IMG/VR virus record: IMGVR_UViG_3300017792_000001 | Coordinates: 40,697 to 104,696 of that record | From: a virus | Lineage: Duplodnaviria > Heunggongvirae > Uroviricota > Caudoviricetes | Length of the DNA stretch: 64,000 nt | Reading direction: 5' to 3' (one strand) | In this document: positions 756 to 57,856 of the stretch, piece after piece | How the letters are laid out: each line of letters opens with the position of its first letter | How positions within the stretch are numbered: the first letter of the stretch is position 1 | Made by a program: the position numbers and the translations under genes | The notes under the pieces: generated by a model | The model's input: the letters and a program-made list of their open reading frames with translations, nothing else | The model's database searches: none | What the model was told of the DNA's origin: nothing

Positions 756-836
756 ACATCAAGGCGATGCGGTCTATGGCTTCATCGCCTTTGTTTTATC
801 TCCTGATGTACTACTGATGACAGAAAAGAGGGCACT

Positions 837-1568: not shown

Positions 1569-1578
1569 AGCACCGTAC

Positions 1579-1695
1579 CTATAATCATAACCGTTATCTG
1601 ACTTGCACTACTGATGACAGTCGTGATATAATGACAGTGCAACTCAACATCCCGCGTGATCAATAGTGGTTACGCATATAGGTTAGGAATAAGTC
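1579..1695 (+). promoter_or_regulatory. conserved early promoter module copy 1: -35 TTGCAC (1603-1608), extended -10 TGaTATAAT (1624-1632), palindrome ACTGatgaCAGT (1610-1621) in the spacer, conserved leader catataggttaggaataagtc
   Basis: Near-identical ~120-bp block recurs at 13691-13802; consensus sigma70 hexamers with 18-bp spacing. Confidence 0.6.
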
Positions 1696-2313
1696 ATGAC
1701 TACAGAATCGAAGCAACGCGCCGCCAACATCAAAGCCCGTCGTGAGGCACTCGGCATTAGCTTTGAGGGCTTTTACGACCAACTAGGTATTAGCCAGCGT
1801 CACGGAGAGTTTGTCGAGAACGGTCAATACGGCAAGCTGACTACAGAACACCGCGAACTGGCCGAGAAGTTTCTCGTTCATCTGGAATTGAAGAAAGACG
1901 GTGCGGTAAAAGCAGCGGCACCTATCGACAAGCCGCATGTATCGCTGAACGACAAGACAGCCACACAGAAGCAACTGGAAAAGTTTGCTGACGGCTTGTG
2001 TCAGTCGATCCTGCGCAACGACCAGAACATCATCACCATTCCCTGGGCGCAGTTTTACGAATTGCTGTACGCATCCACTGGGTGTGGTCACTTCGAACTG
2101 ACCTTGTTGGAGTCCATCTTCTCCAACCAGACGTTCTGCAAGTTGCAGTTCATGATCAGTTTTGGCGAGAAGGTGGTGTTCATCTGCAAAGACACAAACT
2201 TTGCACCTGCATCGTTAGACGACTCCGACGATGAAGATGAAGATGCACCAGCTAACTCGGATGACGAGGATGAAGACAACGATCCCGACATCAAACAACC
2301 AACTACCTGGTGA
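1696..2313 (+). CDS. XRE-type helix-turn-helix protein with polyacidic C-terminal tail
   Basis: N-terminus IKARREALGISFEGFYDQLGISQRHGEFVENG fits the Cro/C1 HTH pattern; C-terminus DDSDDEDEDAPANSDDEDEDNDPD; first gene after the promoter. Confidence 0.55.
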   Translation: MTTESKQRAANIKARREALGISFEGFYDQLGISQRHGEFVENGQYGKLTTEHRELAEKFLVHLELKKDGAVKAAAPIDKPHVSLNDKTATQKQLEKFADGLCQSILRNDQNIITIPWAQFYELLYASTGCGHFELTLLESIFSNQTFCKLQFMISFGEKVVFICKDTNFAPASLDDSDDEDEDAPANSDDEDEDNDPDIKQPTTW

Positions 2314-2567: not shown

Positions 2568-2610
2568 CCAATAAGGCCTGAAAGGGCCCGCACCTATTTG
2601 GAGTACGAAC

Positions 2611-7666: not shown

Positions 7667-8838
7667 TGGAACGCAAACGCACGCGCAACGTCTACCTGTA
7701 CCTGTTCAAGAGCGAAGCCGCTCTGCATAAAGCCATGCGCATGTACAATCTGGAAGAAGACACCTGCACCGATATCTGGGCGCATACCTTCCGGGTGCAG
7801 ATTGGCGAGATACAGACCTACGCGCTGTACACCAGTCGGATCAGCTACTGGCAAAACTATCGCCCGTCGAAGTGGTGGGACATCGGGGCTATCGCAATCT
7901 GGGAAGTCGAACTCGAAGACCTCGACTGTCACAAGAAGACCATCCGGTTCGTGCAAGACTGGCCTGGGCTGCCGACTGGTCAGCGTCTCGAATTGTTCAA
8001 GCTGGTTACCGAACAAGCCGAGCCTGATACAAAATTCTACCGCGGCCGTTGGTTCGAAGACCGTTTCGAACAGCGCGTAGATCGCATGGGTGTCGCTCGC
8101 TTCCTCAAAGAGCACGCCGACTTCAAGATTCTGGGTTCCGAAACAGACCGCGAGGTTGTAGAAGATCTGGCAACGCTGCACAGTGTTGAACTCTCGCACG
8201 AACACATGGGCGCGATACTCGACAGCTTTGGTGCGACAGTCACAGAGATTGCCCGCTACCTGAATGCAACTCGCTTCCCGATGATGAATGATCTGGCAGC
8301 CGGTCGTCACTTCGCTGGCAAGTTTGAGATTCTCGAACAGGTTCCTGATTGGGAGGCCAAGCTCGACGATCCAACCGTGCTGCTGAGCATCAACGATCTG
8401 AATATCAACCCGGGCGAGATTGTGAACTGGGCTATGGGCTGGCGTGATCGTCACTGTGTTGCCTGCCCGCACAGCACTATCCTGTCTCTGGTGAATGCAG
8501 GCATCGACTTGCGCGCTTTGTTTGCTGCACTCGATAACCCAGTGCTCTTTCTACGCGACCAGTGGTACGCACCAGAAATCAAGCAAGCCTACGTCGTACA
8601 AGATCCACACAGTCTTGATTGGTACATCGTCTACATGAACCCGTCTGCGGCTGACGAAAGGACGGTCGAGCGCATGATCTGTTTGGCTGATGGCCACTAC
8701 CAGTACGATCTGCCGTCGCGCAAGGTGATGATCAAGATTCCATTCAACTCGTCGGCCGAGCGTTGCTATGACGAACACGACGCGAAGTACCGTCTCGCCA
8801 AGTGGTACGCTGACCAGCTAAAAGGAGCAAAGAAGTGA
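7666..8838 (+). CDS. hypothetical protein
   Basis: 390-aa ORF, TGATG coupling to the NTase. Confidence 0.55.
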   Translation: MERKRTRNVYLYLFKSEAALHKAMRMYNLEEDTCTDIWAHTFRVQIGEIQTYALYTSRISYWQNYRPSKWWDIGAIAIWEVELEDLDCHKKTIRFVQDWPGLPTGQRLELFKLVTEQAEPDTKFYRGRWFEDRFEQRVDRMGVARFLKEHADFKILGSETDREVVEDLATLHSVELSHEHMGAILDSFGATVTEIARYLNATRFPMMNDLAAGRHFAGKFEILEQVPDWEAKLDDPTVLLSINDLNINPGEIVNWAMGWRDRHCVACPHSTILSLVNAGIDLRALFAALDNPVLFLRDQWYAPEIKQAYVVQDPHSLDWYIVYMNPSAADERTVERMICLADGHYQYDLPSRKVMIKIPFNSSAERCYDEHDAKYRLAKWYADQLKGAKK

Positions 8839-10638: not shown

Positions 10639-10682
10639 CAATTTATAAGCGAACACGAACATGACATTACGGAGTATCGAAC

Positions 10683-12717: not shown

Positions 12718-13232
12718 TGGACAAGCAAGAATACATTGCCCTAGAAACCCTGTACGTCGAAGACGAACATGGTGAGGCGATTGAGTTACCCTTCGGTACC
12801 ATCCTACTGTTTGCGAAGGGTGATCCTGTACCTCAGGTAATGCAGACTGATCTTGGTGCCTGGGGCGTGCGCGCTGGGCATGTGTTGCCCCGTGCCGATG
12901 TTGACCCACGCAAATACTGGATCATGCCTGACGACTTCGCCAAGATGATCAAGAGTGATGCAGCATGGATGATCATCTGCCGCACCATGATCCAAAAGAA
13001 GAAGCGCAGTTTTGGTCTGGCGAAGAAACAGCCGGACAAAAGCATCAAGCCCTACTTCGACATCCGTGACGGCGTGATCACCAAGGTGGAGTTACTCGAC
13101 CGGAATATGGGTGAGGTGCTGATCACGTTCAAAGACGCGCTCGGCGAGAAGACGTTGAAGACCTGGCGTCCGGTTTCGATACTCGACATGGACGAACAGC
13201 GCCTCGTGCGCCCTTACCTAAAGAGGTCATAA
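12717..13232 (+). CDS. hypothetical protein
   Basis: 171-aa ORF, TAATG overlap. Confidence 0.5.
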   Translation: MDKQEYIALETLYVEDEHGEAIELPFGTILLFAKGDPVPQVMQTDLGAWGVRAGHVLPRADVDPRKYWIMPDDFAKMIKSDAAWMIICRTMIQKKKRSFGLAKKQPDKSIKPYFDIRDGVITKVELLDRNMGEVLITFKDALGEKTLKTWRPVSILDMDEQRLVRPYLKRS

Positions 13233-13684
13233 TGAACAAGACCGAATACCTGAAAGCGAAGTTGACCGACGCTATCAAAGACCAGTTTCTGGAGCAGTGC
13301 GAGTCCTGGGGAATTAGCCCGTCAGACGCACTGCGCGATCTGGCAGAAACATTCATCATCGAGCACACCTGTCCGTACAAGGTCGATTGCGAGGTAATGA
13401 CCAAGGGAAATCCGATACTGGTCATGACTATCTCGGGTGAGCATCCGACGGCGATGATCTTCGAACTACCCAATATTCCTGGTTGGACGATTGAGACGAA
13501 ACCAGAGTACCGAGTGCAGATGTTTGGCGAGTCGCGAAGTGCGGCAGTAGTCAATGGTTACTGGGCTGGCGTTTGCACTCCAGATGATCCGACACTTTCT
13601 ATGGGGCGTGTCATCCACGAGTTCACGACGCGCTTCCATAAGATAGCCGCCAAGATGCACCAACTGGACTCCATGTCTGAATAA
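13232..13684 (+). CDS. hypothetical protein
   Basis: 150-aa ORF, ATAATG overlap. Confidence 0.5.
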   Translation: MNKTEYLKAKLTDAIKDQFLEQCESWGISPSDALRDLAETFIIEHTCPYKVDCEVMTKGNPILVMTISGEHPTAMIFELPNIPGWTIETKPEYRVQMFGESRSAAVVNGYWAGVCTPDDPTLSMGRVIHEFTTRFHKIAAKMHQLDSMSE

Positions 13685-13690
13685 CCGTAT

Positions 13691-13802
13691 CTATAATCAT
13701 CACCGTTATCGCTATTGCACTACTGATTGCAGTTGTGATATAATGACTACGTGATAGCTCCCAGAGAGCACAACGTATTGGTTACGCACATAGGTGATGT
13801 TT
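13691..13802 (+). promoter_or_regulatory. conserved early promoter module copy 2: -35 TTGCAC (13715-13720), TGaTATAAT (13736-13744), palindrome ACTGattgCAGT (13722-13733)
   Basis: Same architecture and near-identical sequence as 1579-1695. Confidence 0.6.
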
Positions 13803-16579: not shown

Positions 16580-17071
16580 ATGACTCTGTTCCAGATATTT
16601 GCTTCATGGTTTGCACGCCCTAAGGAAGAAGACATGGTGATGAACTTTGTCTGCGCCAAGTTGCAAACTGATCACGCGCACGTTCTGGTAACTGACAAAG
16701 CCATGCACCCTGTGTATGAGCGTCTGGCTCGCGGCCTTGTGCAGACTTTCACGGGTGAACTGATCCCGATTGAAAGCTCACTGGAGAACATCCACGGTCA
16801 CGAAGTGATCCTGGCGCACAGCACGTTCAACGCGAATCTGGTGAATCAGGTCGCACAGCGCAGCAACCACATCATCTTGATCGTGGACCGTCTCGACCCA
16901 ACCGCGCTCTATGCAGAACGCCTTGCCGAGATTTGTCGCGATACTGGTTGTGAGATTGACTTTGCATTCATCCGAGAGGAGCGTGCGCAGCAAGTCGCAT
17001 ATAGTTCAACAGAAGGCCGTTACATTGGGCACTACGTCCGCCGGCTGATACGAAAGAGGTTGCTTCAATGA
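16580..17071 (+). CDS. hypothetical protein
   Basis: 163-aa ORF, RBS aaggaaatcccA ATG. Confidence 0.5.
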   Translation: MTLFQIFASWFARPKEEDMVMNFVCAKLQTDHAHVLVTDKAMHPVYERLARGLVQTFTGELIPIESSLENIHGHEVILAHSTFNANLVNQVAQRSNHIILIVDRLDPTALYAERLAEICRDTGCEIDFAFIREERAQQVAYSSTEGRYIGHYVRRLIRKRLLQ

Positions 17072-17601
17072 ATGACCGATTAGCGGTCCTGCTTGAACCC
17101 ACGAAGAACTTCAAACGCTTCGCGGTCGTTGAGCTGGAGGCCGACGTAAAGAAAGGCAAGGTTCGCCACGTCGTACATGAACGTGACCGTGATTGGTACA
17201 CCAACTACGATGTGGTCGAGCTTGACCAGTTCCTCGAAGTTCCACCGATCTACGACTTCTTCAACCAGATGCGCAAACTCGCCACATTCGGCATTGTGTT
17301 CTCTAGCGAGACACAGAAGTTTGTAGTGAGCAGCTTCCGTTTCGGTAAGCCGTGCCGCATCAGTGTCCCGGTGTTCAAGGGCGGTAAAGTTGTCAGTCAG
17401 CGGTTCGTCACCACGACGAAGCACATCAACATCGTGGCTGATACGTTTGAAGAATGCGCGATCAAGCTGTTCCGCATTTGTGTTTCTGGTACGCTGTACG
17501 GCTACTACGCGCAAGGTCGCTTGGAGCGCTTGTACTGGGACACCGAGTTCAACCAGTTTTCAACGCAGCACGTTAGTCGCGACTCAATCAAAGTAAAGTA
17601 A
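17068..17601 (+). CDS. hypothetical protein
   Basis: 177-aa ORF, ATGA overlap. Confidence 0.5.
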   Translation: MNDRLAVLLEPTKNFKRFAVVELEADVKKGKVRHVVHERDRDWYTNYDVVELDQFLEVPPIYDFFNQMRKLATFGIVFSSETQKFVVSSFRFGKPCRISVPVFKGGKVVSQRFVTTTKHINIVADTFEECAIKLFRICVSGTLYGYYAQGRLERLYWDTEFNQFSTQHVSRDSIKVK

Positions 17602-17633
17602 CCGGTTCACCCGGTATAGGCTAAGGAATAACC

Positions 17634-19247: not shown

Positions 19248-19787
19248 ATGAACCAAGCAAACGTAACCGAGTGGATGGGCGTACAGGTACTGCCGCTCGT
19301 CTACAACATCAACATGACGTTCGAGGCGAAGATCGCCCGTGCCAACGTCGTGCCGTTTCAAGACATCGAAGACGGTGTGAAGTTTAAGACCTACGCCGAT
19401 CCGAGTCTCGACAAAGAGTGCCTCGATCTGGTCTGGCAAATCACTGGTGACACTGCTGAGTCCCAGTTTGCATTCAAGATGTTGGCGGATCATGCGAACC
19501 AGATCATCGCGACGATGAATGCCAACTTGGTACACTACGCTACCCAGTACATTCGGTCGATGCATCCGCTGTATCGCAATGCAGAACTCGGTACGCCAGG
19601 TACGCCGCGTTACTTCTTGCTGCGCGTCTATCTGAACCACGAGTTCGACTGCACTGAGCACCCGGAAATGTTTCTCGGGTCTCCGCTCGGCATGTATCAC
19701 TGCAAAGTCTGCGGCGATATGCAGGTAGCTGGTCTGCCGCACATCAGCGAGAAGATGGTCGAAGAATTCCACGCGCAGGAGAAGTGA
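19248..19787 (+). CDS. CxxC zinc-finger protein, paralogue B
   Basis: C-terminus RVYLNHEFDCTEHPEMFLGSPLGMYHCKVCGDMQVAGLPHI parallels 18313-18807. Confidence 0.5.
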   Translation: MNQANVTEWMGVQVLPLVYNINMTFEAKIARANVVPFQDIEDGVKFKTYADPSLDKECLDLVWQITGDTAESQFAFKMLADHANQIIATMNANLVHYATQYIRSMHPLYRNAELGTPGTPRYFLLRVYLNHEFDCTEHPEMFLGSPLGMYHCKVCGDMQVAGLPHISEKMVEEFHAQEK

Positions 19788-20491
19788 CCATGGCTCGCAA
19801 GAAAAAGTTGACAGGCTACTTCATCGAAGACCACGCAGACATCATGGAGCGGCTCGCTGCTGGTACTGCCACGGCCGACGATCAGAAGAAGGCTGCAGCC
19901 GCGTTGAATGAAGCCGATCTGTACGAAGACGTGTACCAGAACTGCACCAACAAGATCGAGCCGTATGTCGAACGTGCTGGGCAAGCTGGTGATCTGCCTG
20001 CCTCGTTGTGCGACAGCGTTGACATCCTGCTTGAGTTCTGGCTTGCCAACAAAGACAACCCTGCGTGTCAGCCAGAAACAATGGCAGATGTTCGCAAAGC
20101 GCTCTCTGTGGGAGTCAAGTACAGTCTCGTACCTTGCATAGATGCACTCGCCAAACTTGACGCCGTAACGCCCCAGACGGTCATCCAGCGTGCTGCCAGG
20201 GCCGCTCCGAAGTCATACTTTTTAGCCCCAGGGTTTCCTTCACGTTTGATCAAATGGCGTGAATATGCTGGTTTGACCCAGGAAGAACTGGCGCGCAAGT
20301 GCGTACTGCCAGTGACCGCAGTGCAGGGTTATGAGAACGGTACCAAGAACCCGCAGCCCCGCACTGTGCGCAGAATTGTAAACGTCCTGAATGTCCCACT
20401 GTCGAAGCTGGTTGACGGTGAGAACGAACAACAAATCCCTATTGGTGTATCGAGTGCAACGAAGCGCTCGGTAGACGAGGAAACAGAATGA
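19784..20491 (+). CDS. XRE-type HTH transcriptional regulator (C-terminal HTH)
   Basis: LIKWREYAGLTQEELARKCVLPVTAVQGYENGTKNPQPRTVRRIVNVLNV is a classic Cro/C1 HTH. Confidence 0.6.
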   Translation: MTMARKKKLTGYFIEDHADIMERLAAGTATADDQKKAAAALNEADLYEDVYQNCTNKIEPYVERAGQAGDLPASLCDSVDILLEFWLANKDNPACQPETMADVRKALSVGVKYSLVPCIDALAKLDAVTPQTVIQRAARAAPKSYFLAPGFPSRLIKWREYAGLTQEELARKCVLPVTAVQGYENGTKNPQPRTVRRIVNVLNVPLSKLVDGENEQQIPIGVSSATKRSVDEETE

Positions 20492-21273
20492 ACGACCAAA
20501 ACCGCAAAGACCTGAAAAAGTTTCTGCTGATCAAAGAACTGATGTGCGTCGAGTTGAAGACCGACCCTGAAGCACCAATGCAATACTGGCATTTTGTCGG
20601 TACTTACGACGGCAGCGCAGCCCGTGCAGCCTCTGTCGCGCGCAAGGAAGAAGTCGCCGGAATGTTTGAAGCGTTCATCGCCAAGCATATCCCGGAAGCG
20701 TTTGACGTTGCATCGAACTGGGGCCCAATGAGTGGCTTCGGCATCGACGGCATCATCTTCGAAGCCGAGAATGCGTTGCGCACCGACAAGCGCTTCATTC
20801 AACCGATGCAAGAAGTCCCAGGGTACGCAGAAGGCAAAAGCTGCTACATGGGCAGACCAAACATCGCTACCAAGGAAGGGCTTGAACTGTCTGACCTTCT
20901 GGAGAAGTTGCTGGCCGACGTGCAAGGTCCAATCGAGTTCTCGGACTTCGTGCTTGATGGTTTCGGCATGCACAAAGCGGTCGGCAGCAACGTCATCAAC
21001 GGCAAGCGTGTGATGATTCCACCGCGTGTGTTTGATACGCCGATCGGCCTGTTCTTCTGTGTACCGAAAGAACGTCTATACGAAATGCCTGCTGGGTTTG
21101 AAGTTGTCGCCCAGTCAGTTGTTGCGCTGTCGCAGGACGTCATGGCTCACTTCGCACTGGAAGATGCCGAAGAAGCGGTGTTCAAGGCAGTCGATGCCGA
21201 GGACGATGAAGAGGGTTTCGACGAAGACCCTGCGACCATGTACGACACCCTGAACGCAAGGAAGAACCTATGA
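20488..21273 (+). CDS. hypothetical protein
   Basis: 261-aa ORF, ATGA overlap. Confidence 0.5.
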   Translation: MNDQNRKDLKKFLLIKELMCVELKTDPEAPMQYWHFVGTYDGSAARAASVARKEEVAGMFEAFIAKHIPEAFDVASNWGPMSGFGIDGIIFEAENALRTDKRFIQPMQEVPGYAEGKSCYMGRPNIATKEGLELSDLLEKLLADVQGPIEFSDFVLDGFGMHKAVGSNVINGKRVMIPPRVFDTPIGLFFCVPKERLYEMPAGFEVVAQSVVALSQDVMAHFALEDAEEAVFKAVDAEDDEEGFDEDPATMYDTLNARKNL

Positions 21274-22138: not shown

Positions 22139-22181
22139 CTGTAAACGTCAATTGAACCCATATAAGCTAAGGAAGACCCGC

Positions 22182-22484
22182 ATGCACTCGCAATACTCCA
22201 GCCGCACCGCCGACAAATTCGTTGTACGCCTGCCTGATGGTATGCGTGAACGTGTAGCAGAAGTGGCAAAGGAAAATCACCGCAGCATGAACTCCGAAAT
22301 CATTTCCCGCCTCGAACAAAGTTTGCTCGCTGATGCACCGAATGACGGTACGCTTGGGTTGCGTATCGACAGCCCGGAAGTCAGCAAGCAGGAACAAGAA
22401 CTGCTCAAGCACTTCCGTCAGTTGGCCAAGCGCCAGCAGAACGCAATGCTCGCGCTGATCACCGTAGATGTGGAGGCTCCATGA
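22182..22484 (+). CDS. Arc/Mnt-family ribbon-helix-helix transcriptional repressor
   Basis: [35 protein letters not shown] parallels P22 Arc (FNLRWPREVLDLVRKVAEENGRSVNSEIYQRVMES); ATG 22182 after taaggaag; ORF-track start 22152 is TTG. Confidence 0.8.
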
Positions 22485-32778: not shown

Positions 32779-32803
32779 GGACCTTCGGGTCCCTTTTGTC
32801 AGT
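32779..32803 (+). terminator. rho-independent terminator GGGACC-TTCG-GGTCCC + TTTTGT
   Basis: 6-bp GC stem, tetraloop, T-run immediately after the 32755 stop. Confidence 0.6.
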
Positions 32804-32815
32804 AGGAGAGCCAAC

Positions 32816-36523: not shown

Positions 36524-36561
36524 AAAAAGCCCTGCCTAGAGAAATCTAAGCGGGGCTTTTT
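36524..36561 (+). terminator. rho-independent terminator (GCCCTGC ... GCGGGGC + TTTTT)
   Basis: Hairpin with A-tract before and T-tract after, 3 nt beyond the 36521 stop. Confidence 0.55.
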
Positions 36562-37762: not shown

Positions 37763-37805
37763 CAAAAAGGCCACTGCCCGGTTAAGAGCGAGTGGCCTTT
37801 TTTAG
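37762..37805. terminator. bidirectional rho-independent terminator (AAAAA-GGCCACT ... AGTGGCC-TTTTTT) at the early/late convergence point
   Basis: 7-bp GC-rich stem flanked by an A-run and a T-run, between convergent genes. Confidence 0.65.
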
Positions 37806-43472: not shown

Positions 43473-46400
43473 TTACAGGTTGGCGCGTGAAGCACGCACG
43501 ATGCGGAAGTTTTTGAGCGTCATATCCGAGTTCCAGATGACACCACCGCTTGCACCGATACGTCGCCCAATCAGGAACTGAGTATTGGTATCGAGCTGGA
43601 TGTCGTCTGTGAATGCAGACTCGCCGATCTTCACGTTGTCTACCCAGAAGGACAGCATGCCGCTAGAACGGGTGACTTGCACCTTGTACATGGTGTTCAG
43701 GGCGAAGTTGGCAGGGAAGATGCGATACTGCGCAGAGCTTTCATTACCGACGGAGAAGCCGAGATTACCAGTGCCGAAGTTGTAGTTCACCTCATAGTTC
43801 ATCGGGCTTCCAGGTGTTGCAACGTTACCCCAGAAGACCAATGCTACAAGTGAACCGTTCGCTCCAGAAGGCTGTGAGCTTTGCAGACTGAATTCCATGT
43901 CAATCGTGAAGTCACCAGAACCGAGAACAAGCGCTTGGCTTGGTGGAATGGTGATGTACGACCCAGGCGTGATACGCACACCGTCAGCAACTACCGAAGT
44001 ACCAACACCAGAGCCAAGGGCGAGTGACCCTTTGTCGATGATCGTGGTACCTGCCATCTTGATTCGCGGCAGTGTCGATGCTGGCGTAATCTTGCCGTTG
44101 TACATCGCACGTTTGGCAATGCGGATGTTCGTCACTTGCAAGGTATTCGCTGTACCCGAGGTGTTGTCCCACAGGTTACGCAGTGGTCGCAGAGCCGCAC
44201 GGTTGATGAACGGGATTGGTGCACTGCCCTCAGCAACCTTCACACCATCGAAGTACATGGTGATCGTGGAGCCGACCTTCTCGACGACAACGTGGCAGTC
44301 AGAGTTGAGCGGCAGTGGAACACTCGCTTGAATGTTGCGTGCAGAACCAGCACTGTCTACCCAGTAGAAGATCACACCACGACTGCCGCTAGTCCACATC
44401 AACCAGTTACAGTTTGCATCGAAGGCATTACCGTACTGACCCATGATGCCAGATTCAGCAGTCGCTGGGTTTACAGGCATCCGCACCTTGCACTCAATCG
44501 TGAAGTCAGCAGCACCGAAATACGCACACGGTGCAGAGAAACGCGACGTGGCTTGCGGCTGGATGTTCAAGCGACCATACGCAACGGTTGCAGTACCGAG
44601 CAGAGTGATGTTCTCACCAGTCGCTTCGTTTACCAGAGAGTTCTGGCGCATGCAGGACTGGAACACGATGTCAGCAGCAACCGCTTCGTCGTACACCGCA
44701 GGCGTAATCGTTGGCAGAATCGTTGGTGGTGTGAACGGTCCGTTGTATGCAGACTTACCGCGGAAGATCCGCATGTTCCAACGCTTACCGATTGCACCGT
44801 TGCGAATGTTCAGGAACTCTGTACTTCTGAATGTCGCAGTAGCGTTCGGCCCTGAGTAGATCGGCACACCGTTGAGATAGATCGTCAACACACCAGCGAC
44901 ACGTCCAACGGCCAAGTGATGATCAGCGTTCAGCGTGAAGCCTGCAGCAGGCACAGTGATGCGCCCGGTGTTCGGGCTTGCACCATTATCGTTCACGATT
45001 GCAATTACGGTACCGTTGGCTTGTGCGCCCAGAAAGAAGGCAAAGTCAGTGGAACCCGACGGTGCGTACATCGACAGAGCTGCAGCCGCATCAGGAATCG
45101 AAGACATATTCAGCCAGCCTTCAATGCTGAAATCCTCAGCAGCCGACAGGTACAGCGGCATTGCCATATCCATCGGCTTGTCAGTTGACGCCGTATTCAC
45201 CAGCTTGTTACCTGTGATCGTGGCGTTCGATAGCAGCACAGGTGCTTGAGTAACATCGTCTATCGCCAGATTGTCACGGAAGCTGAACTGCGACCAGAGA
45301 GTTGTATCGAACACCATGGAAGGTGCCACGCCTGAATTCAGGATCATGACGCGATGCGTCGTGTCAGCCGTATTTTGAGGTGCGAACGTACCGATGATCG
45401 CGACCGTGCTGTCATCAATGTTGTGCAGCATACTGTCGTAGGTCTGCTTGGACAAACTCAGACCCAGTAGCTTGCTGTTTGCAGACGCATTGACCGCGTT
45501 GGTTGCCGGATCATAACGGAACACGTACACACGCAAATCAGTGGACATCCGTGCCACAATATCTGGCGTGTTAATCAAGTTTGAAGACAGAGCAGCGGGT
45601 GGATTACCAACACCTGCAATGACGATGAACGTGGTCTGATCGACCCAGATTGCATCTTCCATTGTCAACGTGGCGAAGTCAATTCCAGACGCAGTGCTCG
45701 ACAAAGCCGTGATGCCTTGAATATAACCATTCGAAGCACTTCGCGTGAATTGAGAAACTACAACCTGAGCACCGTTGAAGTTGACAAACTTGTCTCCTTC
45801 AATCGGGACAATGTTCCGAGTATACGAAGGTGCAGACGTAGCATAATAGGCATTACGTCCATCGTCAAAGCTGCCTGTGCTGAAATCCAGATAGAAAGCA
45901 GCAGTCTCAGCAGCAACCAGAGACCAGACTTTACCCTTACGATCAACGCGATGTCCCGAATACAGCGGCGCCATACTTGTGGCTTGGTAGTTCGCACTAC
46001 CTCGCGCTTTCTCCGCAACAATCGTATCACCAGACATAGTGATCTTGAACATCATCTGGTAGTCTTTGGCTGCACCTTGTCCTCGACTACCACTCGTTGT
46101 GCCGTTGTACCACGCAATCCCATTACCTGCACTTAGCAGCAGTGGAAGTTGAGGTTGCAAACTGTCAGATGCAGTTGCCGTGGTTGTTGCGGCAGTACGA
46201 CTGACCAACGATACGCTATCATCCGAGTTCACGTTGAGCAGCGCGAACGAGTGGACGGTTGCCAACCCGTTCTTGACGTTGACGTTCTCTGGGATGCTGA
46301 GCACTAATCGTGAGTCAGTAATCTTGGTGATGCGCATCATTGGATGCTGCACCGCCGAGTTACCATTCATGTTCGCGATGAAGCTCGGTGCTTTGAACAC

Positions 46401-46655
46401 CGGCTTCTTGTCCACGAAGTTTACGATCTGGACGTAATACTTGTTCACACCCGCTTGCACACCAGCGAAGACCAAAGCGATCTTGGTCTTGCTGATCGGG
46501 CACCAACTAAGCGCCCGCGTAGACACTGCCATAGCAATGTCAGACGCAGGTGTTGGGATTGTGTTGGACTCGGTTGTGAGGTTCCCGTTGTACCAATCAG
46601 TAGGCAGCGCACGCACAAAAGGCCACGGCGATCTAGCAGGTATTAATGCGAGCAT
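43473..46655 (-). CDS. large tail fibre / receptor-binding protein with tandem LamG/ConA-like jelly-roll domains
   Basis: 1060 aa; repeated ...DFT-I-E... and ...LT-I-Y-x-N/D-G-V... motifs typical of LamG/pentraxin folds; N-terminus MLALIPARSPWP. Confidence 0.6.
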   Translation of the reverse strand: MLALIPARSPWPFVRALPTDWYNGNLTTESNTIPTPASDIAMAVSTRALSWCPISKTKIALVFAGVQAGVNKYYVQIVNFVDKKPVFKAPSFIANMNGNSAVQHPMMRITKITDSRLVLSIPENVNVKNGLATVHSFALLNVNSDDSVSLVSRTAATTTATASDSLQPQLPLLLSAGNGIAWYNGTTSGSRGQGAAKDYQMMFKITMSGDTIVAEKARGSANYQATSMAPLYSGHRVDRKGKVWSLVAAETAAFYLDFSTGSFDDGRNAYYATSAPSYTRNIVPIEGDKFVNFNGAQVVVSQFTRSASNGYIQGITALSSTASGIDFATLTMEDAIWVDQTTFIVIAGVGNPPAALSSNLINTPDIVARMSTDLRVYVFRYDPATNAVNASANSKLLGLSLSKQTYDSMLHNIDDSTVAIIGTFAPQNTADTTHRVMILNSGVAPSMVFDTTLWSQFSFRDNLAIDDVTQAPVLLSNATITGNKLVNTASTDKPMDMAMPLYLSAAEDFSIEGWLNMSSIPDAAAALSMYAPSGSTDFAFFLGAQANGTVIAIVNDNGASPNTGRITVPAAGFTLNADHHLAVGRVAGVLTIYLNGVPIYSGPNATATFRSTEFLNIRNGAIGKRWNMRIFRGKSAYNGPFTPPTILPTITPAVYDEAVAADIVFQSCMRQNSLVNEATGENITLLGTATVAYGRLNIQPQATSRFSAPCAYFGAADFTIECKVRMPVNPATAESGIMGQYGNAFDANCNWLMWTSGSRGVIFYWVDSAGSARNIQASVPLPLNSDCHVVVEKVGSTITMYFDGVKVAEGSAPIPFINRAALRPLRNLWDNTSGTANTLQVTNIRIAKRAMYNGKITPASTLPRIKMAGTTIIDKGSLALGSGVGTSVVADGVRITPGSYITIPPSQALVLGSGDFTIDMEFSLQSSQPSGANGSLVALVFWGNVATPGSPMNYEVNYNFGTGNLGFSVGNESSAQYRIFPANFALNTMYKVQVTRSSGMLSFWVDNVKIGESAFTDDIQLDTNTQFLIGRRIGASGGVIWNSDMTLKNFRIVRASRANL

Positions 46656-46663
46656 ATAGAGCC

Positions 46664-49600
46664 TCAGACAAATTCGAAGGCGATCTCTCGACCCTCAGCG
46701 AGAGGATTCATTGCAGTCACACCGGACCAATAACCGGATTGCGCACCAAGCGGCGAAACAAAGCCACTGGTAGGTTGTTGGTTGTAGACGAATGTAACCC
46801 CGTTGATGATCAAGGTATTAGTCCAAGCGGGCATATCGCTCGTTGGAGTCAGTGTTGTGTCCTCCCAGCCCAGGATTAAGAACGAGCCACGGTCCATGAA
46901 CAGACCTTTCAGGCGACGTACAATCGTTGTGCTCCCAGAGGTATAACGGAACAACTTGTGCGTGCAAGAACCAAGACTGATGTAGGCACCGCCGCCGCTT
47001 GATACGCTGTACGACGAATTCTCCATGTAACCGTAGATCGTACCGACATCACCAGAGAAGAAACCCATGGTGAGCGAAGGTTTGATCGTGTTCAGCCGCT
47101 TATACTGCGGGAACTTCGGTACGGTGCCTTTGTACTGACTTGTCTTCGAGATACGCACATCACGCACGGACAGACCGCCGCTGCCGATATCACCACGTTG
47201 AATCGGCAATGTCGTTGCAGGCAGTGCACCAGAGAATGTACCACTGGCTTTTGCGACACCATCAAAGTACAGAGTTATGGTTGTACCTACGCGCTCAGCA
47301 ACCACGTAGTATTCTTGGTTCAGCACAAGGGCTTCTGGGTTCGTGATGACCACCAAGCCTGTGAGTGCAGCACCCGTCGAACTGAGTACAAGCCCGATCT
47401 TACCGTCCATGAGACGGAACTGCCACGAGTTGTTGCTCGCGCTATTCAGGAACTGACCGATCAACGACACAGGGTTACCTGAGATAGACGACACCACTAG
47501 GCGCGCTTCAATCGTGAAGTCACCAGCACTGAATGCAGGTGTCAAACCAGCCCATGCAAACCCACCGTTGGTGCTGATACGACTGGACAGAACCGAACCG
47601 TTTGCAGCAGGTACCGTAATCAGCGTACCGAGCTTATCGTCACGTGGCGAGCGAGACACCGTGGCTTGAGTAACGACGTTCGCCTCTTCCGCTGTCGTGT
47701 ACTTGTTGTCAGGGAAACCAGGAAAGGTTGCAGCAACATCGACTACGCCATTGTACATGGCTTTGTCAGCGATGCGAATGTCCCAGATCCAACCAGTGCC
47801 GCTATAGTTACCTGTACCCGGACTGTAGTTGCGAACGAAGCGTGGAGCTTCACCGCGAATCGGGAACGTGCAAGGGGCAGACAGCTTGTCAACCTGAACG
47901 CCAGTGTGGGCATCCAGAATATACAGCGTCAGTACACCAGCAACACGCTCAACGATCACGCGGTAGTCGATGTTCAATGCCAGAGCAACGGTCGAATACA
48001 GCGAGACTGCATCAGTGCCGACAGTCGAACGGTTCATCTGGAAGTAGGCTTTGCGGTCCGCAGCGATCAGCAATGCCCAGCGGTTCAAGTCGTTAGTGGC
48101 AGAACCCAACCACCACTCGCTCAGTAGCAAGAAGCCAGCAGTAGCGCCAGCAACCGACATATTGAAACTGCACTCGATGGTGAAGTCACCTGCACCGAAC
48201 GGGTCTGCGAGTAGCATGAACCCGTTGGTTGAGGCTTGAGTGCCTGTGAACTTCATGCGACCTTGTTGTACGACTTGGTTCGCACCGCCGGTGTTGACAA
48301 CAACTCGGTCGTTGGCTTCATCAATCACTGCATCGCGACGGAATCCAACCTGTGCACGAATTGCCTTGGCATCATCAACACTATACAGCGGGCGCACGTA
48401 TGTCTGCACCGAAGTATCTGGTGTGAAGCTCTCGGTGTGACGGCAGATGCCTTTGTCGATATACAGACCACGACGTGTGCCACGGAACGCATACGAGTTG
48501 GAGTTTGTGCCGAAGCCAATACCACGTGCGCTTGCAGGTTGCGGACCAATACCGCCGTTGTTGACAGTGCTGAGAGTCTGCTTGACGCCGTTCATGAACA
48601 CATAGAACTGACCACCTTTGCGGCTAAACTCAATGTGCAAATCGGCACCTGCAGCCACAACAACGTCTTGCCCAGGTACGAGCGCGATAAACGCACCTGC
48701 CACCTTCACGTAGAAGAGAAACTTGTTGAAGTTCTTGCCGTAGAGAATGTAGAACGTACCAGCAGTATCGCCTGGTACATCACACGAACCAGCGATCAAC
48801 AGGTCTGTGGTAATTGCGGCAGCGGACAGAGTGTTCAACGGTGTGATCGTCAGACCAATCGTGAAGTCCTCGTTATCCTTGAACAGCAACGTGTCCTTGA
48901 TGCGCATCGACGAGGCGGCAGTTGTGGTAGTGACTTTATTGTCCGCAATTGAAATGCCGGAACCTGCAAGGATACCGAACTTCTCGGTAACATCGTCGAT
49001 GTGCTCGTTGGTTGCGAACGAGAAATGCCTCCAGCGGTTGAAGTCGCTGAGCGTGAGCTGGCGTACGGTGATGCTCGATACAACGGAGCGTGCCGTGTAG
49101 GTCAGATTCCAGTTTGCCCAATCAGCACTGTACCAGATCTTCTCGTCGCCGATGATCAGGCTGTTCGAACCAGCAGCATAGATGTCACGCAGCGCTTGGT
49201 TTGCACCGAACATCGTGTTCATGGTTGCAGCAGGAATTTGTTCCCATGCAGTACCAGCAACACCCTTGTACATCAGCGATTGACCAGTGGCAGAGTCTGC
49301 GTTACCGATCTGGAATACAGTGTCAGTTGAGACTTGCGTTGCACTGCCGCCACTGTACAAGGCGTTGCTTGCAGCGCTTGCACGGGTAGCGGTCCAGCTC
49401 GTATCAGATGGTTTGCGACGATAAGCGCCAGCACCTTGGCGAACAGCAACAAGGTACTCTTTACTTTCAGTGATCGAACCAATAACGATGTACTGCGAAC
49501 CTGAAGTCACGTTATCGGTGGTGACAGTGTAGCCGTTGCCGTTCCAAGTGAACACATGGAAACCACGCAGAGCATCACCGACACCTGGTTGATATATCGC

Positions 49601-50059
49601 ACCAGTGGAAAGACGCTTCGCTTTACCGCCACGGAAACCTGTTTGAGTAGGCGCAGTGTAAGTGCCGCGAGTCCACGTTGCACCGTTGTCAGTCGTGAAG
49701 AAGTAGGACGAGTTGCTGCCCAGAACAAGGAAGCGCCCACTGTCGAAGACGATGGAACCCTGATCGAGCGGAGTGCCTGAGACGATAGCAGCCGGAATCG
49801 TGAGCTTCTCCCACGTAACGCCGTCGTCAATAGAACGCAAGATCGTGCAGTTCGTACCACACGCCATCCACTGCCCGTTGCCGTATGCAGCTTGGTGCAG
49901 ATTCGCTGTGGTCAATCCCGTAGCCATTTCGGCCCACGAAGTTCCGTCTATTGAGCGTGCAATGAGACCAGATGCTCCTACCGCGACTGCGGTTATTCCT
50001 TTACTAGCCACTTGCCTCACAAACGGCCACAAGGCGAACTTGGGGATTAGACTGAGCAT
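46664..50059 (-). CDS. large tail fibre / receptor-binding protein (BNR propeller + LamG-like domains)
   Basis: Start set to internal ATG (MLSLIPKFALWP; RBS AGGA) at 50059; BNR boxes SIDGTSW, SIDDGVTW, TTDNGATW, then LamG-like repeats (GDFTIE ... TLYFDG). Confidence 0.55.
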   Translation of the reverse strand: MLSLIPKFALWPFVRQVASKGITAVAVGASGLIARSIDGTSWAEMATGLTTANLHQAAYGNGQWMACGTNCTILRSIDDGVTWEKLTIPAAIVSGTPLDQGSIVFDSGRFLVLGSNSSYFFTTDNGATWTRGTYTAPTQTGFRGGKAKRLSTGAIYQPGVGDALRGFHVFTWNGNGYTVTTDNVTSGSQYIVIGSITESKEYLVAVRQGAGAYRRKPSDTSWTATRASAASNALYSGGSATQVSTDTVFQIGNADSATGQSLMYKGVAGTAWEQIPAATMNTMFGANQALRDIYAAGSNSLIIGDEKIWYSADWANWNLTYTARSVVSSITVRQLTLSDFNRWRHFSFATNEHIDDVTEKFGILAGSGISIADNKVTTTTAASSMRIKDTLLFKDNEDFTIGLTITPLNTLSAAAITTDLLIAGSCDVPGDTAGTFYILYGKNFNKFLFYVKVAGAFIALVPGQDVVVAAGADLHIEFSRKGGQFYVFMNGVKQTLSTVNNGGIGPQPASARGIGFGTNSNSYAFRGTRRGLYIDKGICRHTESFTPDTSVQTYVRPLYSVDDAKAIRAQVGFRRDAVIDEANDRVVVNTGGANQVVQQGRMKFTGTQASTNGFMLLADPFGAGDFTIECSFNMSVAGATAGFLLLSEWWLGSATNDLNRWALLIAADRKAYFQMNRSTVGTDAVSLYSTVALALNIDYRVIVERVAGVLTLYILDAHTGVQVDKLSAPCTFPIRGEAPRFVRNYSPGTGNYSGTGWIWDIRIADKAMYNGVVDVAATFPGFPDNKYTTAEEANVVTQATVSRSPRDDKLGTLITVPAANGSVLSSRISTNGGFAWAGLTPAFSAGDFTIEARLVVSSISGNPVSLIGQFLNSASNNSWQFRLMDGKIGLVLSSTGAALTGLVVITNPEALVLNQEYYVVAERVGTTITLYFDGVAKASGTFSGALPATTLPIQRGDIGSGGLSVRDVRISKTSQYKGTVPKFPQYKRLNTIKPSLTMGFFSGDVGTIYGYMENSSYSVSSGGGAYISLGSCTHKLFRYTSGSTTIVRRLKGLFMDRGSFLILGWEDTTLTPTSDMPAWTNTLIINGVTFVYNQQPTSGFVSPLGAQSGYWSGVTAMNPLAEGREIAFEFV

Positions 50060-50169
50060 ATTGATTCCTGCATGAGTTCGGTGTTGGCTATTAGAAAATG
50101 AAGATCCGTCTGAAATAGTCCTTGGAAAATAAAAGGGCCGCACACCAAGAAGATGAACGACCCTTGGGC

Positions 50170-50706
50170 TTAGATCGAGGTCACTCGCACACACGCTGGT
50201 TCAGTTACCTGACCATACGCATTCACCAGACGGTAGGCAAAGGACTCTTGCCCACTGTTACCTTGAGAGACGTAGGCAATGTGCTGACCGTCATTCGATA
50301 CTCGCGCCACACCCTTTTCAGGTTGACTGAGGATCTGAGGCCAGAACGGAATGCTCGCCTTGAACATGCTGTCACCCTCGCCCTGTACAAGGGCTTTGCC
50401 AAGGTTGATCACATGATCTTCAAAAGGTGCGATGGCTTTGAACACCCGAATTTGATACTCTCCGGGCGTGCGAGTTACGAGAAAGCCGCCCTCGAACCAG
50501 TAGTCAGGTTGAAACCCTTCTGCACGGTTCAAAGACACGCCGTCACTGGTTCGAATCACGTCAAACAGACCGCGATTGATCGGATCCATTTCGAGCCGAT
50601 CAGTGAAGACTTCTTCGGTGAACTCCACAGAAGCCTTGGGTAAGAACTTCTGTAGATCGTTGATGGAAGGTTTGGCATAACGAAACACTGGACTTGACGC
50701 AAGCAT
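50170..50706 (-). CDS. hypothetical structural protein
   Basis: ATG 50706 overlaps the upstream TAA (TAATG); the ORF track extends further to an alternative start. Confidence 0.45.
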   Translation of the reverse strand: MLASSPVFRYAKPSINDLQKFLPKASVEFTEEVFTDRLEMDPINRGLFDVIRTSDGVSLNRAEGFQPDYWFEGGFLVTRTPGEYQIRVFKAIAPFEDHVINLGKALVQGEGDSMFKASIPFWPQILSQPEKGVARVSNDGQHIAYVSQGNSGQESFAYRLVNAYGQVTEPACVRVTSI

Positions 50707-56149: not shown

Positions 56150-57856
56150 TTATGCTGCTACTTTCTTACCGCTGACAACCACGAAGATTTTCTGCGCAAC
56201 AGCCAGGGTGACGGTGACGGTGTTGGCGTCAGTCAGCTTGACCGAATCAGGCAGTAGCTGGTTGAACGCTTCGTCGTACACGGCAACAGTCGCGAAACGG
56301 TTGTTCATGTTGTGCGTGACAACGTAGCTATCGGCAGCAGCACCGGTAGTACCGTCGAACACGAACTGGTTCGCGTCCAGCTTGGCACCCAGATCAGTGA
56401 TGGTCTGAGTAACGGTGGTCACTGCGTCGGTCACAGTCTTGCGGTTCGCGATGCTGGTGTCAGCAGTCGGAGCAGGAACAGCGATCTGGCCAGTCAGGGT
56501 TGCAGTCGCAGCGTCCAGCTTCAGGTACGAAGCCGAGATATCACCGATTGCAACACCGTCGGTGGTAACAGTGACAGTGCCGTCGGCAGCTTTGACAGCG
56601 AGCGCAGTACCTGCACCGCCTTGGAGGCCGTTACCAACAACGTCAGCAGCCAGGTTGGCAGCTTTCACGCCTTCGCTTGCGATGCGAACGCCGGTAGCGT
56701 CAACGGCGAGGCCGCCAGTGTCTTTCAGCAGAACAGCCAGCACGGAATCAGCAGCGGTAGAAGCATCGCCAGTGATCGGGTCGACCAGACGCAGACCGCC
56801 AGTGGTGCCGACGTCGAGACCGATTTCACCGGTAGGTAGGTTAGCAACACCAGCACCGAACTTGACGCTCAGAACGTTGCCGTTCTTTTCCAGACCAGCG
56901 GATACAGTGACGCCGCTCAGGCCGCCTTGTTCCGACCAGTTGGTGCCGTCAAACTTCTTGTACTTGCCTTCTGCGCGATCCCAGACCAGGACGCCAGGAC
57001 CACGAACGCTCACGTCGTAGATCACAACGTAGTCGTCGCCTTTCTTCTGGATGATGTCGCCATCTTCCAGGCCGTCGATAGTACCGAACTCAGCGTTCAG
57101 GGTATCGGCGTCGGTAACGATGTAGCGGTTCTCGTTGTCAGGAACGACAGACAGAGTAGGCGTCAGGGTACCGTCAACCTGGGTTGCGATCACGTCGGCT
57201 TGGAAGTCGAGCGAGGCTTTCAGGTTGTCGATGTCGATCAGACGCACAGGGCTGGTCGGATCGGTTGGCGCAGACAGGTTCAGCAGCGTGTGAGTGCCGC
57301 CGAAGTTCAGGTCGCCGGTCAGTGCATCGCCAGCTTTGTTTACCGGAACGTAGCCCAGGTCGTCTTGCTTGAGTTCGATCTGGGTCTGGATGTTGTCGGT
57401 AACGCCATCCAGGTGGTTCAGTTCGGTAACGCTGATCAGTGCGGAACCACTGATCTTGCCATCAGCATCAGTAACTGCAACCACGGACGGAGCCAGGTCG
57501 AGAGTAGTGATGGTAGTAGCGGCACCAGTGATCTTGTCCTGCTTGGCTTCACCAGCAGTTTCGATTGCAGCGGTGAGCTGGCCGACAGTAGCGGCTTCGA
57601 GGGCTTGAACGCCGTCAGCAGCGAGGATCAGCGGACCGGTGAGCGTGCCACCTTCTTTCGACAGGTAAGCATCGAGGCTACCACCAGTTGCGATGGTCAG
57701 CACTTCGGTACCGTTGTACCAGCGCAGTGCTTTGTCGGTGGTGTTGACCCACGTCAGACCCTGAACAAGATCAGCGCCGGATGGATCAGCCGCGAGACGA
57801 CCAGGCTTCAGGCCCTGAATCTCGCCGACTACTTGAATATTGCCGTTATAGCGCAT
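56150..57856 (-). CDS. tail fibre protein
   Basis: N-terminus NGNIQVVGEIQGLKPGRLAADPSGADLVQGLTWVNTTDKALRWYNGT typical of a fibre N-domain; phage-fibre repeat GGTLTGPLIL; long Gly/Thr/Ala-rich beta repeats. Confidence 0.7.
   Translation of the reverse strand: MRYNGNIQVVGEIQGLKPGRLAADPSGADLVQGLTWVNTTDKALRWYNGTEVLTIATGGSLDAYLSKEGGTLTGPLILAADGVQALEAATVGQLTAAIETAGEAKQDKITGAATTITTLDLAPSVVAVTDADGKISGSALISVTELNHLDGVTDNIQTQIELKQDDLGYVPVNKAGDALTGDLNFGGTHTLLNLSAPTDPTSPVRLIDIDNLKASLDFQADVIATQVDGTLTPTLSVVPDNENRYIVTDADTLNAEFGTIDGLEDGDIIQKKGDDYVVIYDVSVRGPGVLVWDRAEGKYKKFDGTNWSEQGGLSGVTVSAGLEKNGNVLSVKFGAGVANLPTGEIGLDVGTTGGLRLVDPITGDASTAADSVLAVLLKDTGGLAVDATGVRIASEGVKAANLAADVVGNGLQGGAGTALAVKAADGTVTVTTDGVAIGDISASYLKLDAATATLTGQIAVPAPTADTSIANRKTVTDAVTTVTQTITDLGAKLDANQFVFDGTTGAAADSYVVTHNMNNRFATVAVYDEAFNQLLPDSVKLTDANTVTVTLAVAQKIFVVVSGKKVAA

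Follow-up and report, generated by a model that had tools for sequence, protein, structure and literature searches.

Putative promoter cassettes with a separable ACTG-N4-CAGT dyad are conserved among PaBG-like jumbo phages

In phage P22, the Arc operator at the Pant promoter is a dyad located between the -35 and -10 elements, and the LexA SOS box has the form TACTG-N10-CAGTA. In T4-like phages, the promoter-early stem-loop elements (PeSLs) are known as regulatory cassettes (PMC2839356, PMC4122927), and in the T4 genes e, soc, 49, and I-TevI, read-through transcripts bury the ribosome binding site in a helix, whereas transcripts from the internal promoter lack the 5' arm (PMC3014915). The DNA analysed here (64,000 nucleotides [nt] of the IMG/VR record IMGVR_UViG_3300017792_000001, positions 40,697 to 104,696; referred to as the window) is carried on a 277,619-bp metagenomic contig of a jumbo phage related to Pseudomonas phage PaBG, and it contains two near-identical intergenic blocks, each with a predicted promoter and an ACTG-N4-CAGT dyad in the promoter spacer. 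Our best explanation, to which we give about an even chance of being correct, is that the blocks are conserved cassettes that combine a promoter for the host RNA polymerase with a separable spacer operator for a sub-regulon. Judged from the sequences, the cassette family is real, conserved, and previously undescribed; the mechanism of its operator-like element is unproven.

A 71-nt direct repeat (1565 to 1635 versus 13677 to 13747; 83% identity) was returned by a repeat search as the longest in the window and forms the core of the two blocks, about 12 kb apart, that the initial annotation had described. The blocks, here designated w1 and w2, occupy the two largest intergenic gaps of the plus-strand gene array. 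An upstream motif (ctataatcat-Maccgttatc), an extended -10 element, a shared downstream leader, and a perfect inverted repeat in the spacer had also been listed in that annotation, and all four were found in both blocks, as follows.

1569 to 1695, plus strand: promoter cassette copy 1 (w1), the whole gap from the stop codon at 1566 to 1568 to the ATG at 1696
1572 to 1597, plus strand: upstream element of copy 1, with U1 ACCG..ACCTATA at 1572 to 1583 and U2 TAACCGTTAT at 1588 to 1597
1604 to 1609, plus strand: -35-like hexamer TGCACT of copy 1, agreeing with TTGACA at 3 of 6 positions and separated by 17 nt from the -10 element
1610 to 1621, plus strand: dyad ACTGATGACAGT of copy 1, at about -29 to -18
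1624 to 1632, plus strand: extended -10 element TGaTATAAT of copy 1, with a predicted transcription start at about 1639
1663 to 1695, plus strand: leader of copy 1, with D2 ATAGTGGTTA at 1663 to 1672, D1 TATAGGT at 1677 to 1683, and the Shine-Dalgarno sequence AGGA at 1685 to 1688
13685 to 13802, plus strand: promoter cassette copy 2 (w2), the gap between the stop codon at 13682 to 13684 and the ATG at 13803
13716 to 13744, plus strand: core of copy 2, with the -35-like TGCACT at 13716 to 13721, the dyad ACTGATTGCAGT at 13722 to 13733, and TGaTATAAT at 13736 to 13744
13776 to 13802, plus strand: leader of copy 2, with D2 TATTGGTTA at 13776 to 13784 and D1 plus the Shine-Dalgarno sequence, ATAGGTG, at 13790 to 13796

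The upstream block ACCGTAyCTATAATCATmACCGTTATC (27-mer) occurs twice in the window (0.00 expected), as does the leader block TGGTTACGCAyATAGGT (17-mer; 0.18 expected), and the 18-mer core has three matches at ≤3 mismatches (0.07 expected). The string TGNTATAAT is found twice in the 64 kb (0.38 expected), both times inside these modules, as are all four TATAAT hexamers of the window; a general depletion of TATAAT in the genome was unsupported (4 found versus 5.5 expected). The bare ACTG-N4-CAGT pattern is not enriched in the window (2 versus 1.7 expected); what makes the repeat significant is the longer context that its copies share, together with the evidence of the relatives.

The cassettes are regarded as extended -10 promoters of the host sigma-70 type, with an activity that is predicted from their anatomy. 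The extended -10 element TGATATAAT at 1624 to 1632 and 13736 to 13744 comprises TATAAT (1627 to 1632 and 13739 to 13744) and a TG one base before it (1624 to 1625 and 13736 to 13737); GATAAT, TAAACT, or TATACT takes the place of the hexamer at the same offset in relatives. The TG is present at that offset in 12/12 full cassettes outside the two IMG/VR ones (L009 and L010); these 12 were found by a dyad search with neither TG nor -10 in the pattern, and for L009 and L010 the pattern specified TG. For the -35 element, the letters of the TTGCAC with an 18-bp spacer that had originally been proposed are indeed present, but homology favours TGCACT with a 17-nt spacer, and the TTGCAC reading is thus the less likely one: the counterparts of TGCACT in relatives are TTGACT (5/6), TAGACT (4/6), and TGTACT. 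TGCACT itself was not called by a simple consensus scan, which found no other convincing sigma-70 site on the plus strand between 1 and 20 kb.

Other readings of the same bases were rejected. The upstream TATAAT at 1580 to 1585 (inside U1) and at 13692 was considered as a second, tandem promoter, but other cassettes have CTAAAC, CTACAA, CTATCA, or CTATTC in these columns, and neither a -35 element nor a TG accompanies it. The likeness of CTATAATCATAACCGTTATC to a Fur box (15/19 positions of the consensus) is probably coincidental, since the U1 and U2 arms explain the bases and relatives match worse. Sigma-54, extracytoplasmic function sigma, Pho-box, and LexA readings of the motif, compared with the respective consensus sequences, misfit in spacing or in invariant bases.

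Relatives were gathered by pattern scans and by look-ups of homologues of the protein encoded at 1696 to 2313. The close relatives are L140 to L148, L174, L179, and L180, PaBG is represented by L001 to L006, and a 266-kb metagenomic phage, Ga0302347_1000050, is available also as IMG/VR contigs (L009 to L020, L049, and L175 to L183). All of these carry the same cassette. Its 5' part consists of an upstream element with two ACC..TA repeats ~18 nt apart, the -35-like hexamer T(G/T)nAC(T/G), and a 17-nt spacer, and its 3' part of TGn(T/G)A(T/A)A(A/C)T with a G after it, a stretch that varies, (A/T)(G/T)TGGTTAYG, TAGnTnAGGT, and the start codon. A search independent of the dyad identified 15 distinct cassettes, 7 of them in PaBG, and the 266-kb phage has at least five copies. 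Other searches yielded little: locus searches with one protein or with a two-sequence alignment returned PaBG alone, a 14-base pattern scan of IMG/VR gave mostly chance matches in coding sequence, megablast of 8 kb against deposited phages found no DNA-level relative, a distant blastn search for the module turned up nothing beyond chance matches in Lak phages, and we found no paper on promoters of the PaBG group in a literature search.

Between relatives, the cassettes show 84% to 90% DNA identity, compared with 51% to 77% for the flanking genes. The w1 block is 84% to 85% identical to its orthologues in L142 and L144 (flanking genes, 51% to 76%), and w2 is 90% identical to its L142 orthologue (flanking genes, 67% to 77%); from these alignments we conclude that the cassettes are under stronger purifying selection than the neighbouring genes. 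Positional orthologues of w1 are PaBG 4454 and L020:2629 of the 266-kb phage; that of w2 is PaBG 255138, and none was identified in the 266-kb phage. The genes downstream of the cassettes are often unrelated from lineage to lineage, and the genes adjoining the sites differ among the window, L140 to L145, and PaBG. In PaBG, the leader of cassette 20625, in front of gp038 (~20520 to 20540, minus strand), is longer and contains a minimal start-stop open reading frame (ORF), ATGTAA, with a second Shine-Dalgarno sequence (AAGGAG) between it and gp038.

The dyad was characterized over 27 sites, which comprise 25 unique sequences. Its full motif reads T(G/T)nACTACTGATnnCAGT and lacks symmetry; one 18-mer form that contains the dyad is TTGACTACTGATTGCAGT. 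In the arms, ACTG and CAG are invariant in 25/25 unique sites and the final T is kept in 21, while positions 3 and 4 of the centre are free to vary; conservation, in 22 to 24 of the 25, extends to the T..ACT flank and to the AT that opens the centre, although these lay outside every search pattern. In copy 1 of the window lineage, the dyad extends to CAC-n-ACTG-N4-CAGT-n-GTG (1606 to 1625). The enrichment that is absent from the window was found in PaBG, which has 14 dyads where ~3.7 are expected (analytic calculation from base composition), 8 of the 14 lying between annotated genes on the gene strand; in relatives, the palindrome thereby survives the enrichment check that the initial annotation had set as a possible refutation. 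A literature search returned no paper mentioning the dyad, and an exact scan of a bacterial genome collection for the dyad-bearing promoter gave no match.

The spacers of the 15 cassettes fall into two groups, 10 with ≥7/8 arm bases and 5 with ≤4/8, with no intermediates. Those lacking the dyad are PaBG 12787, 98444, 102147, and 108847 and L010:8502, so that three of the seven PaBG cassettes (4454, 20625, and 255138) carry it. Together with stand-alone copies that have no -10 element, the dyad-less cassettes show, at the level of sequence, that the dyad is separable from the core promoter. Two of the dyad-less PaBG cassettes, 98444 and 102147 (minus strand; L002:48444 and L003:2147), precede the replication-gene block and share another spacer motif, CCGCCGGT(r)TG, which at 98444 forms TACCG-C-CGGTA and may be a second operator class.

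One such stand-alone (orphan) site lies in the window, next to a hairpin.

807 to 824, plus strand: orphan site w3, TGTACT followed by ACTGATGACAGA, without a -10 element and ending 12 nt before the ATG at 837
763 to 798, plus strand: terminator-like hairpin GGCGATG..CATCGCC followed by TTTGTTTTA, directly upstream of w3, as read from the sequence

Its 18-mer core, TGTACTACTGATGACAGA, has two mismatches over 18 nt, and the degenerate third copy that had been reported before the 837 start is real. The right arm is imperfect (CAGA), and the same imperfection is seen in all close relatives. The site is kept at the orthologous position in L141, L142, L143, L144, L145, PaBG (5178), and the 266-kb phage (L020:2173); the hairpin-then-orphan arrangement also occurs in L141 to L145 and at PaBG 5178, while in the sequence inspected L020:2173 is preceded by a T-rich stretch only. 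Three lineages with no more than 30% to 65% protein identity have thus kept orphans at orthologous positions. Others directly follow a stop codon (L148:8001 and PaBG 5765) or lie in a 1.5-kb non-coding region of PaBG. The L148 site (7990 to 8001, ~315 nt upstream of the window start) is a fourth dyad of the same genome, ACTGCAATCAGT; it immediately follows a stop codon, with the next ATG 12 nt further on, is the orthologue of PaBG 5765, and has its conserved flank on the opposite strand. In PaBG, two perfect copies of TTTGACTACTGATTGCAGTA, 118 bp apart (L003:16538 to 16562 and 16656 to 16680; PaBG 116538 to 116680), are located in the 1.5-kb stretch without annotated genes, at a gene-orientation switch near tRNA genes, and neither copy is followed by a -10 element. 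Since nothing is conserved at the -10 offset, orphans were rejected as sigma-70 or phage-sigma promoters.

Orphans could also be taken as remnants. In that case, the dyad would have no function of its own and would be -35-proximal spacer sequence inherited through duplication or recombination of cassettes, the orphans being half-cassettes comparable to degraded T4-like PeSLs; the promoter sequence of T4-type PeSLs is conserved, and their degraded copies keep only the -35 element or the -35 element and the stem-loop (PMC4122927). The -35-like hexamer accompanies the dyad always, and whole genes have been gained or lost next to the sites: the 70-amino-acid gene after w3 (837 to 1049) is missing in L141, L144, and L145, where w3 stands directly before a 171-amino-acid gene, and the 150-amino-acid gene before w2 (13232 to 13684) is missing in L142. 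However, the arms are invariant while the -35 element, the centre, and the -10 element vary across lineages, retention at orthologous positions in three lineages is unexpected for decaying scars, and the spacers are either intact dyads or unrelated sequences. We consider a functionless dyad quite unlikely.

If the dyad is instead an operator, a protein should bind it, and the initial annotation had proposed candidates, foremost the product of the first gene after copy 1.

1696 to 2313, plus strand: first gene after copy 1; predicted N-terminal XRE-type helix-turn-helix (HTH) fold and a conserved C-terminal domain

The product has no Pfam or PHROG match, and weak HTH_31 matches were seen in 3 of the 12 members of its family (best E = 0.001). 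In the AlphaFold2 model, the N-terminal residues 1 to 67 (predicted local distance difference test score, ~77 to 91) form a five-helix XRE fold, for which Foldseek listed C.BclI, HipB, C.AhdI, and 434 Cro with probabilities of 0.97 to 0.99 and target TM-scores of 0.55 to 0.72, at E values of only 0.04 to 0.6. Restriction-modification controller proteins, which are among these best matches to the modelled fold, bind compact palindromes with 4-bp arms. This protein could therefore bind the dyad, autoregulating copy 1 and controlling also copy 2 and the site at 807 to 824, and a homologue does follow the equivalent w1-type cassette in the 266-kb phage (BLASTP E = 2e-6). However, the link between gene and site is one of adjacency, the window protein has no Pfam HTH match, and the family has no homologue in PaBG (profile search, including --max) or in 50,697 deposited phage genomes, although PaBG has eight intergenic dyads. 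The HTH fold of the original proposal is thus upheld as a prediction, while the autoregulator role is unsupported and, in our estimate, rather improbable.

The remaining candidates fare no better. The HTH_3 protein at 19784 to 20491 (plus strand; C-terminal HTH_3 domain, E = 7e-13), also suggested as a binder, has no PaBG homologue. The ORF at 13232 to 13684 (plus strand) has a weak RelB-like, ribbon-helix-helix N terminus (E = 0.002), no PaBG homologue, and no counterpart at that position in L142. The Arc-like protein at 22152 to 22484 (plus strand) matches the Arc domain of Pfam (E = 8e-23) and AmrZ (PDB 3QOQ; E = 1e-20), is 57% identical to PaBG gp184, and has a DNA-reading strand, ADKFVVRLP, identical to that of AmrZ, which reads GGC-N5-GCC (PMC3325190). 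With this target predicted rather than ACTG-N4-CAGT, we tentatively reject the protein as the dyad binder that it had been proposed to be; it may be a phage copy of the host global regulator of motility and alginate.

An operator nevertheless remains the best reading of the dyad, although an unproven one. PaBG-like (Baikalvirus-type) jumbo phages would depend on the RNA polymerase of the host: in the genome paper of PaBG, a sigma-70-like factor is described but no RNA polymerase of the phage (PMC7412058), and early transcription should therefore use the host holoenzyme. In each sigma-70-type cassette promoter, the extended -10 element (TGnTATAAT) would offset the weak -35 element, and the cassette, with its own 5' leader and ribosome binding site, would drive a long one-strand array of small, presumably early genes; since the arrays that they head consist of small ORFan genes, the cassettes probably act early. 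The 12-bp dyad, embedded in the 18-mer T(G/T)nACTACTGATnnCAGT, would most likely serve a DNA-binding regulator as its operator. It lies at about -29 to -18, so that a protein bound there would obstruct RNA polymerase, and a regulator filling the spacer would switch off the sub-regulon, with the stand-alone copies, 0.4 to 1.1 kb away, serving as auxiliary sites.

This layout is similar to that of the Arc operator at the P22 Pant promoter, in that a short dyad fills the spacer, where a dimer or tetramer bound to it would stall RNA polymerase or keep it out. It differs in its 4-bp arms, in the asymmetry of the motif, and in having no known binding protein, and the Arc-family protein of the window is an AmrZ homologue for which GGC half-sites are predicted (PMC3325190). 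The half-site letters, (T)ACTG and CAGT(A), are those of the LexA box; however, the dyad spacing is N4 and not N10, and the LexA geometry therefore misfits. Because the binding protein is missing, the element cannot be placed in an operator class, though a dyad within the spacer resembles the classical operator layout.

Several observations weigh against this explanation of the cassettes. Each arm has no more than 4 bp; the motif is asymmetric, with conservation of the left flank T..ACT and the centre AT but not of the right flank; and 25 of the 27 sites are oriented in the gene direction, a bias that fits a strand-specific role (promoter or RNA) better than a symmetric dimer site. The orphans hold the -35-like hexamer despite having no -10 element, and several are located 12 to 14 nt from the start codon within very short intergenic gaps. 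The -35 element of the window copies matches the consensus at three positions only. Moreover, PaBG lacks the 1696 to 2313 family yet keeps the dyad, and no cognate binder was found among the DNA-binding candidates of the window, which either have no PaBG homologue or are predicted to have another target. The spacer operator suggested in the initial annotation is thus partly supported: the position, the separability, and the conserved arms are in its favour, while no binding protein was found and a simple symmetric dimer site would not account for the asymmetric, strand-oriented motif.

The strand bias could be explained if the dyad acts in RNA, as a small hairpin or as single-stranded ACUACUGAU, which a nuclease or an RNA-binding protein would recognise; within a cassette, the dyad would form the apex of a larger fold between the upstream element and the leader. 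All sites have the sense orientation of a transcription unit and are thus contained in read-through RNA, and the orphans lie right next to the Shine-Dalgarno sequence. The upstream element is the reverse complement of the leader in each of the 19 cassettes compared, U1 pairing with D1 and U2 with D2. In the window, 1572 to 1597 pairs with 1663 to 1688 and 13684 to 13709 with 13776 to 13796; in copy 1 the helices are TAACCGTTAT (1588 to 1597) with ATAGTGGTTA (1663 to 1672) and ACCTATA (1577 to 1583) with TATAGGT (1677 to 1683), and at PaBG 255138 AACCAATAGCAC pairs with GTGCTATTGGTT. For the two-helix structure of 23 pairs, 76.9% of 437 cells of the alignment of the 19 cassettes are paired, compared with 25% to 38% when the arms are slid. 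Duplexes between the two arms range in energy from -13 to -38 kcal/mol, with z-scores versus shuffles of -0.8 to -6.8, and for 15 of 17 RNAs of read-through length the predicted minimum-energy fold includes the long-range pairing, the dyad often being a small apical hairpin in it.

Read-through RNA could thus fold across the promoter, with ACCU pairing to AGGU next to the Shine-Dalgarno sequence, and as RNA the complementarity could either mask the ribosome binding site in the style of T4 gene e or form an RNase III-type processing site. A conserved local hairpin in the leader had been considered as well, but single-sequence folds were inconsistent between cassettes, and this idea was dropped in favour of the long-range pairing. 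The covariation is, however, weak (score of 0.116 versus 0.091, reached by 16/500 shuffles), nine pairs have two-sided changes (a number reached by 132/500 shuffles), and G-U-type mismatches are about as frequent overall as A-C-type mismatches (27 versus 23). The mean unpaired probability of the Shine-Dalgarno sequence is 0.41 in the long and 0.51 in the short transcript (17 cassettes); the effect is clear in PaBG (e.g., 0.19 versus 0.43) and nil in the window copies (0.46 versus 0.48). As for the dyad itself, a 4-bp stem with a 4-nt loop is only marginally stable (estimate, ~-1 kcal/mol), the orphan of the window lineage has a conserved closing-pair mismatch (CAGA) that leaves 3 bp, and the dyad is not transcribed in RNA started at the cassette's own promoter. 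In our view, a role of the dyad in RNA is unlikely.

The flanking complementarity is comparable to the T4 gene e arrangement: the 5' arm (U1 and U2) lies before the promoter, the 3' arm (D2 and D1, with AGGT by or within the Shine-Dalgarno sequence) is in the leader, and the helix is possible only for RNA coming from upstream. In contrast to T4, it would be general to every cassette of the class and not confined to single late genes, and the helix is a predicted one with weak covariation and without an accessibility effect in the window copies.

The closest overall counterparts of the cassettes are the PeSLs. Both are repeated intergenic cassettes with a sigma-70-like early promoter and an upstream element, both end at the 3' side in a Shine-Dalgarno sequence and a start codon, and both are located among small variable genes. 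In both, whole-gene insertions or deletions adjoin the cassettes, and "half" cassettes hold the -35 element; from the absence of genes 837 to 1049 and 13232 to 13684 in relatives, it follows that whole-gene indels border the cassettes here as they do at T4 PeSLs. The phage groups are, however, unrelated, the present one being PaBG-like jumbo phages and not T4-like phages; no hairpin is found between the upstream stop codon and the promoter in w1 and w2, the hairpin at 763 to 798 being present before w3 only; a conserved spacer dyad occurs here in a subset of cassettes; and a 55- to 60-nt leader is conserved and complementary to the upstream element. We therefore take the cassette as a new instance of a type of phage regulatory module that is already known, rather than as a mechanism of its own.

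The nearest relative of the source phage is Baikalvirus PaBG (258 kb) and not a T4-like myovirus. The match of the window to PaBG is at the protein level, with syntenic gene order in reverse orientation, and the virion protein encoded at 56150 to 57856 is 64% identical to its PaBG homologue. As the Arc-like protein is a close homologue of Pseudomonas AmrZ, a Pseudomonas host is suggested. Tightly packed plus-strand genes form a single array from 1 to ~37,000, after which minus-strand structural genes follow, including adjacent large paralogues (43473 to 46655 and 46664 to 50194, minus strand; PHROG 3545) that have internal 26-nt repeats in common (repeat family D1). Terminator-like GC-rich hairpins are found along the plus-strand array (2574 to 2589, 17601 to 17615, 32785 to 32804, 36527 to 36560, and 37766 to 37800), several with T runs after them, and the last is the convergence point of the two gene blocks. 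Many start codons in the window and its relatives are preceded by the same string, ACGAACATG (e.g., GGAGTACGAACATG and GGTTACGAACATG; window 2598 to 2610 and 10668 to 10682). Rfam and tRNA scans of the window found nothing.

The ACTG-N4-CAGT arms were also observed outside the PaBG group. Unrelated jumbo phages of RaK2 or 121Q size have repeated promoters of the form TTGACA-ACTG(N4)CAGT-ACTG(c)-yATAAT. Sites of the TTGACA-ACTG(N4)CAGT type are located in Klebsiella phage RaK2 (L012:2874 and L151:7589 and 10995) and at L016:599 (348,532-bp contig); the arms are the same, the centre is ATTT, GTTT, or CATC, and at least five sites of this form are present in RaK2. With so many promoters, the match could have arisen by chance, or the element could be a shared one.

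A broader interpretation, which we regard as doubtful, would make the composite cassette a general control point of PaBG-like jumbo phages, with the promoter in the loop of a U1/U2:D2/D1 RNA helix, spacer dyads that define regulons, and a regulator shared with RaK2- and 121Q-type phages. RNA coming from upstream would then be folded, masked, or processed, while cassette-started RNA would be free. Interchangeable spacer dyads would set separate regulons, ACTG-N4-CAGT in the ORFan-rich block and the CCGCCGG type before the PaBG replication genes, and the presence of ACTG-N4-CAGT in RaK2- and 121Q-type promoters would point to a shared regulator, possibly host encoded.

Little is known about the timing of gene expression in jumbo phages that lack an RNA polymerase of their own, and even in T4 the shut-off of early promoters is still described as incompletely understood (PMC3014915). 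Should none of these proposals prove correct, what remains is a clean annotation of a family of conserved promoters. The cassette offers a testable map of candidate early promoters, seven of them in the cultivable PaBG and three of these with the dyad, and the 18-mer could be used as bait for a regulator that may shut the promoters off. If the flank complementarity does work as RNA, the principle known from T4 gene e would be widened from single genes to a promoter class.

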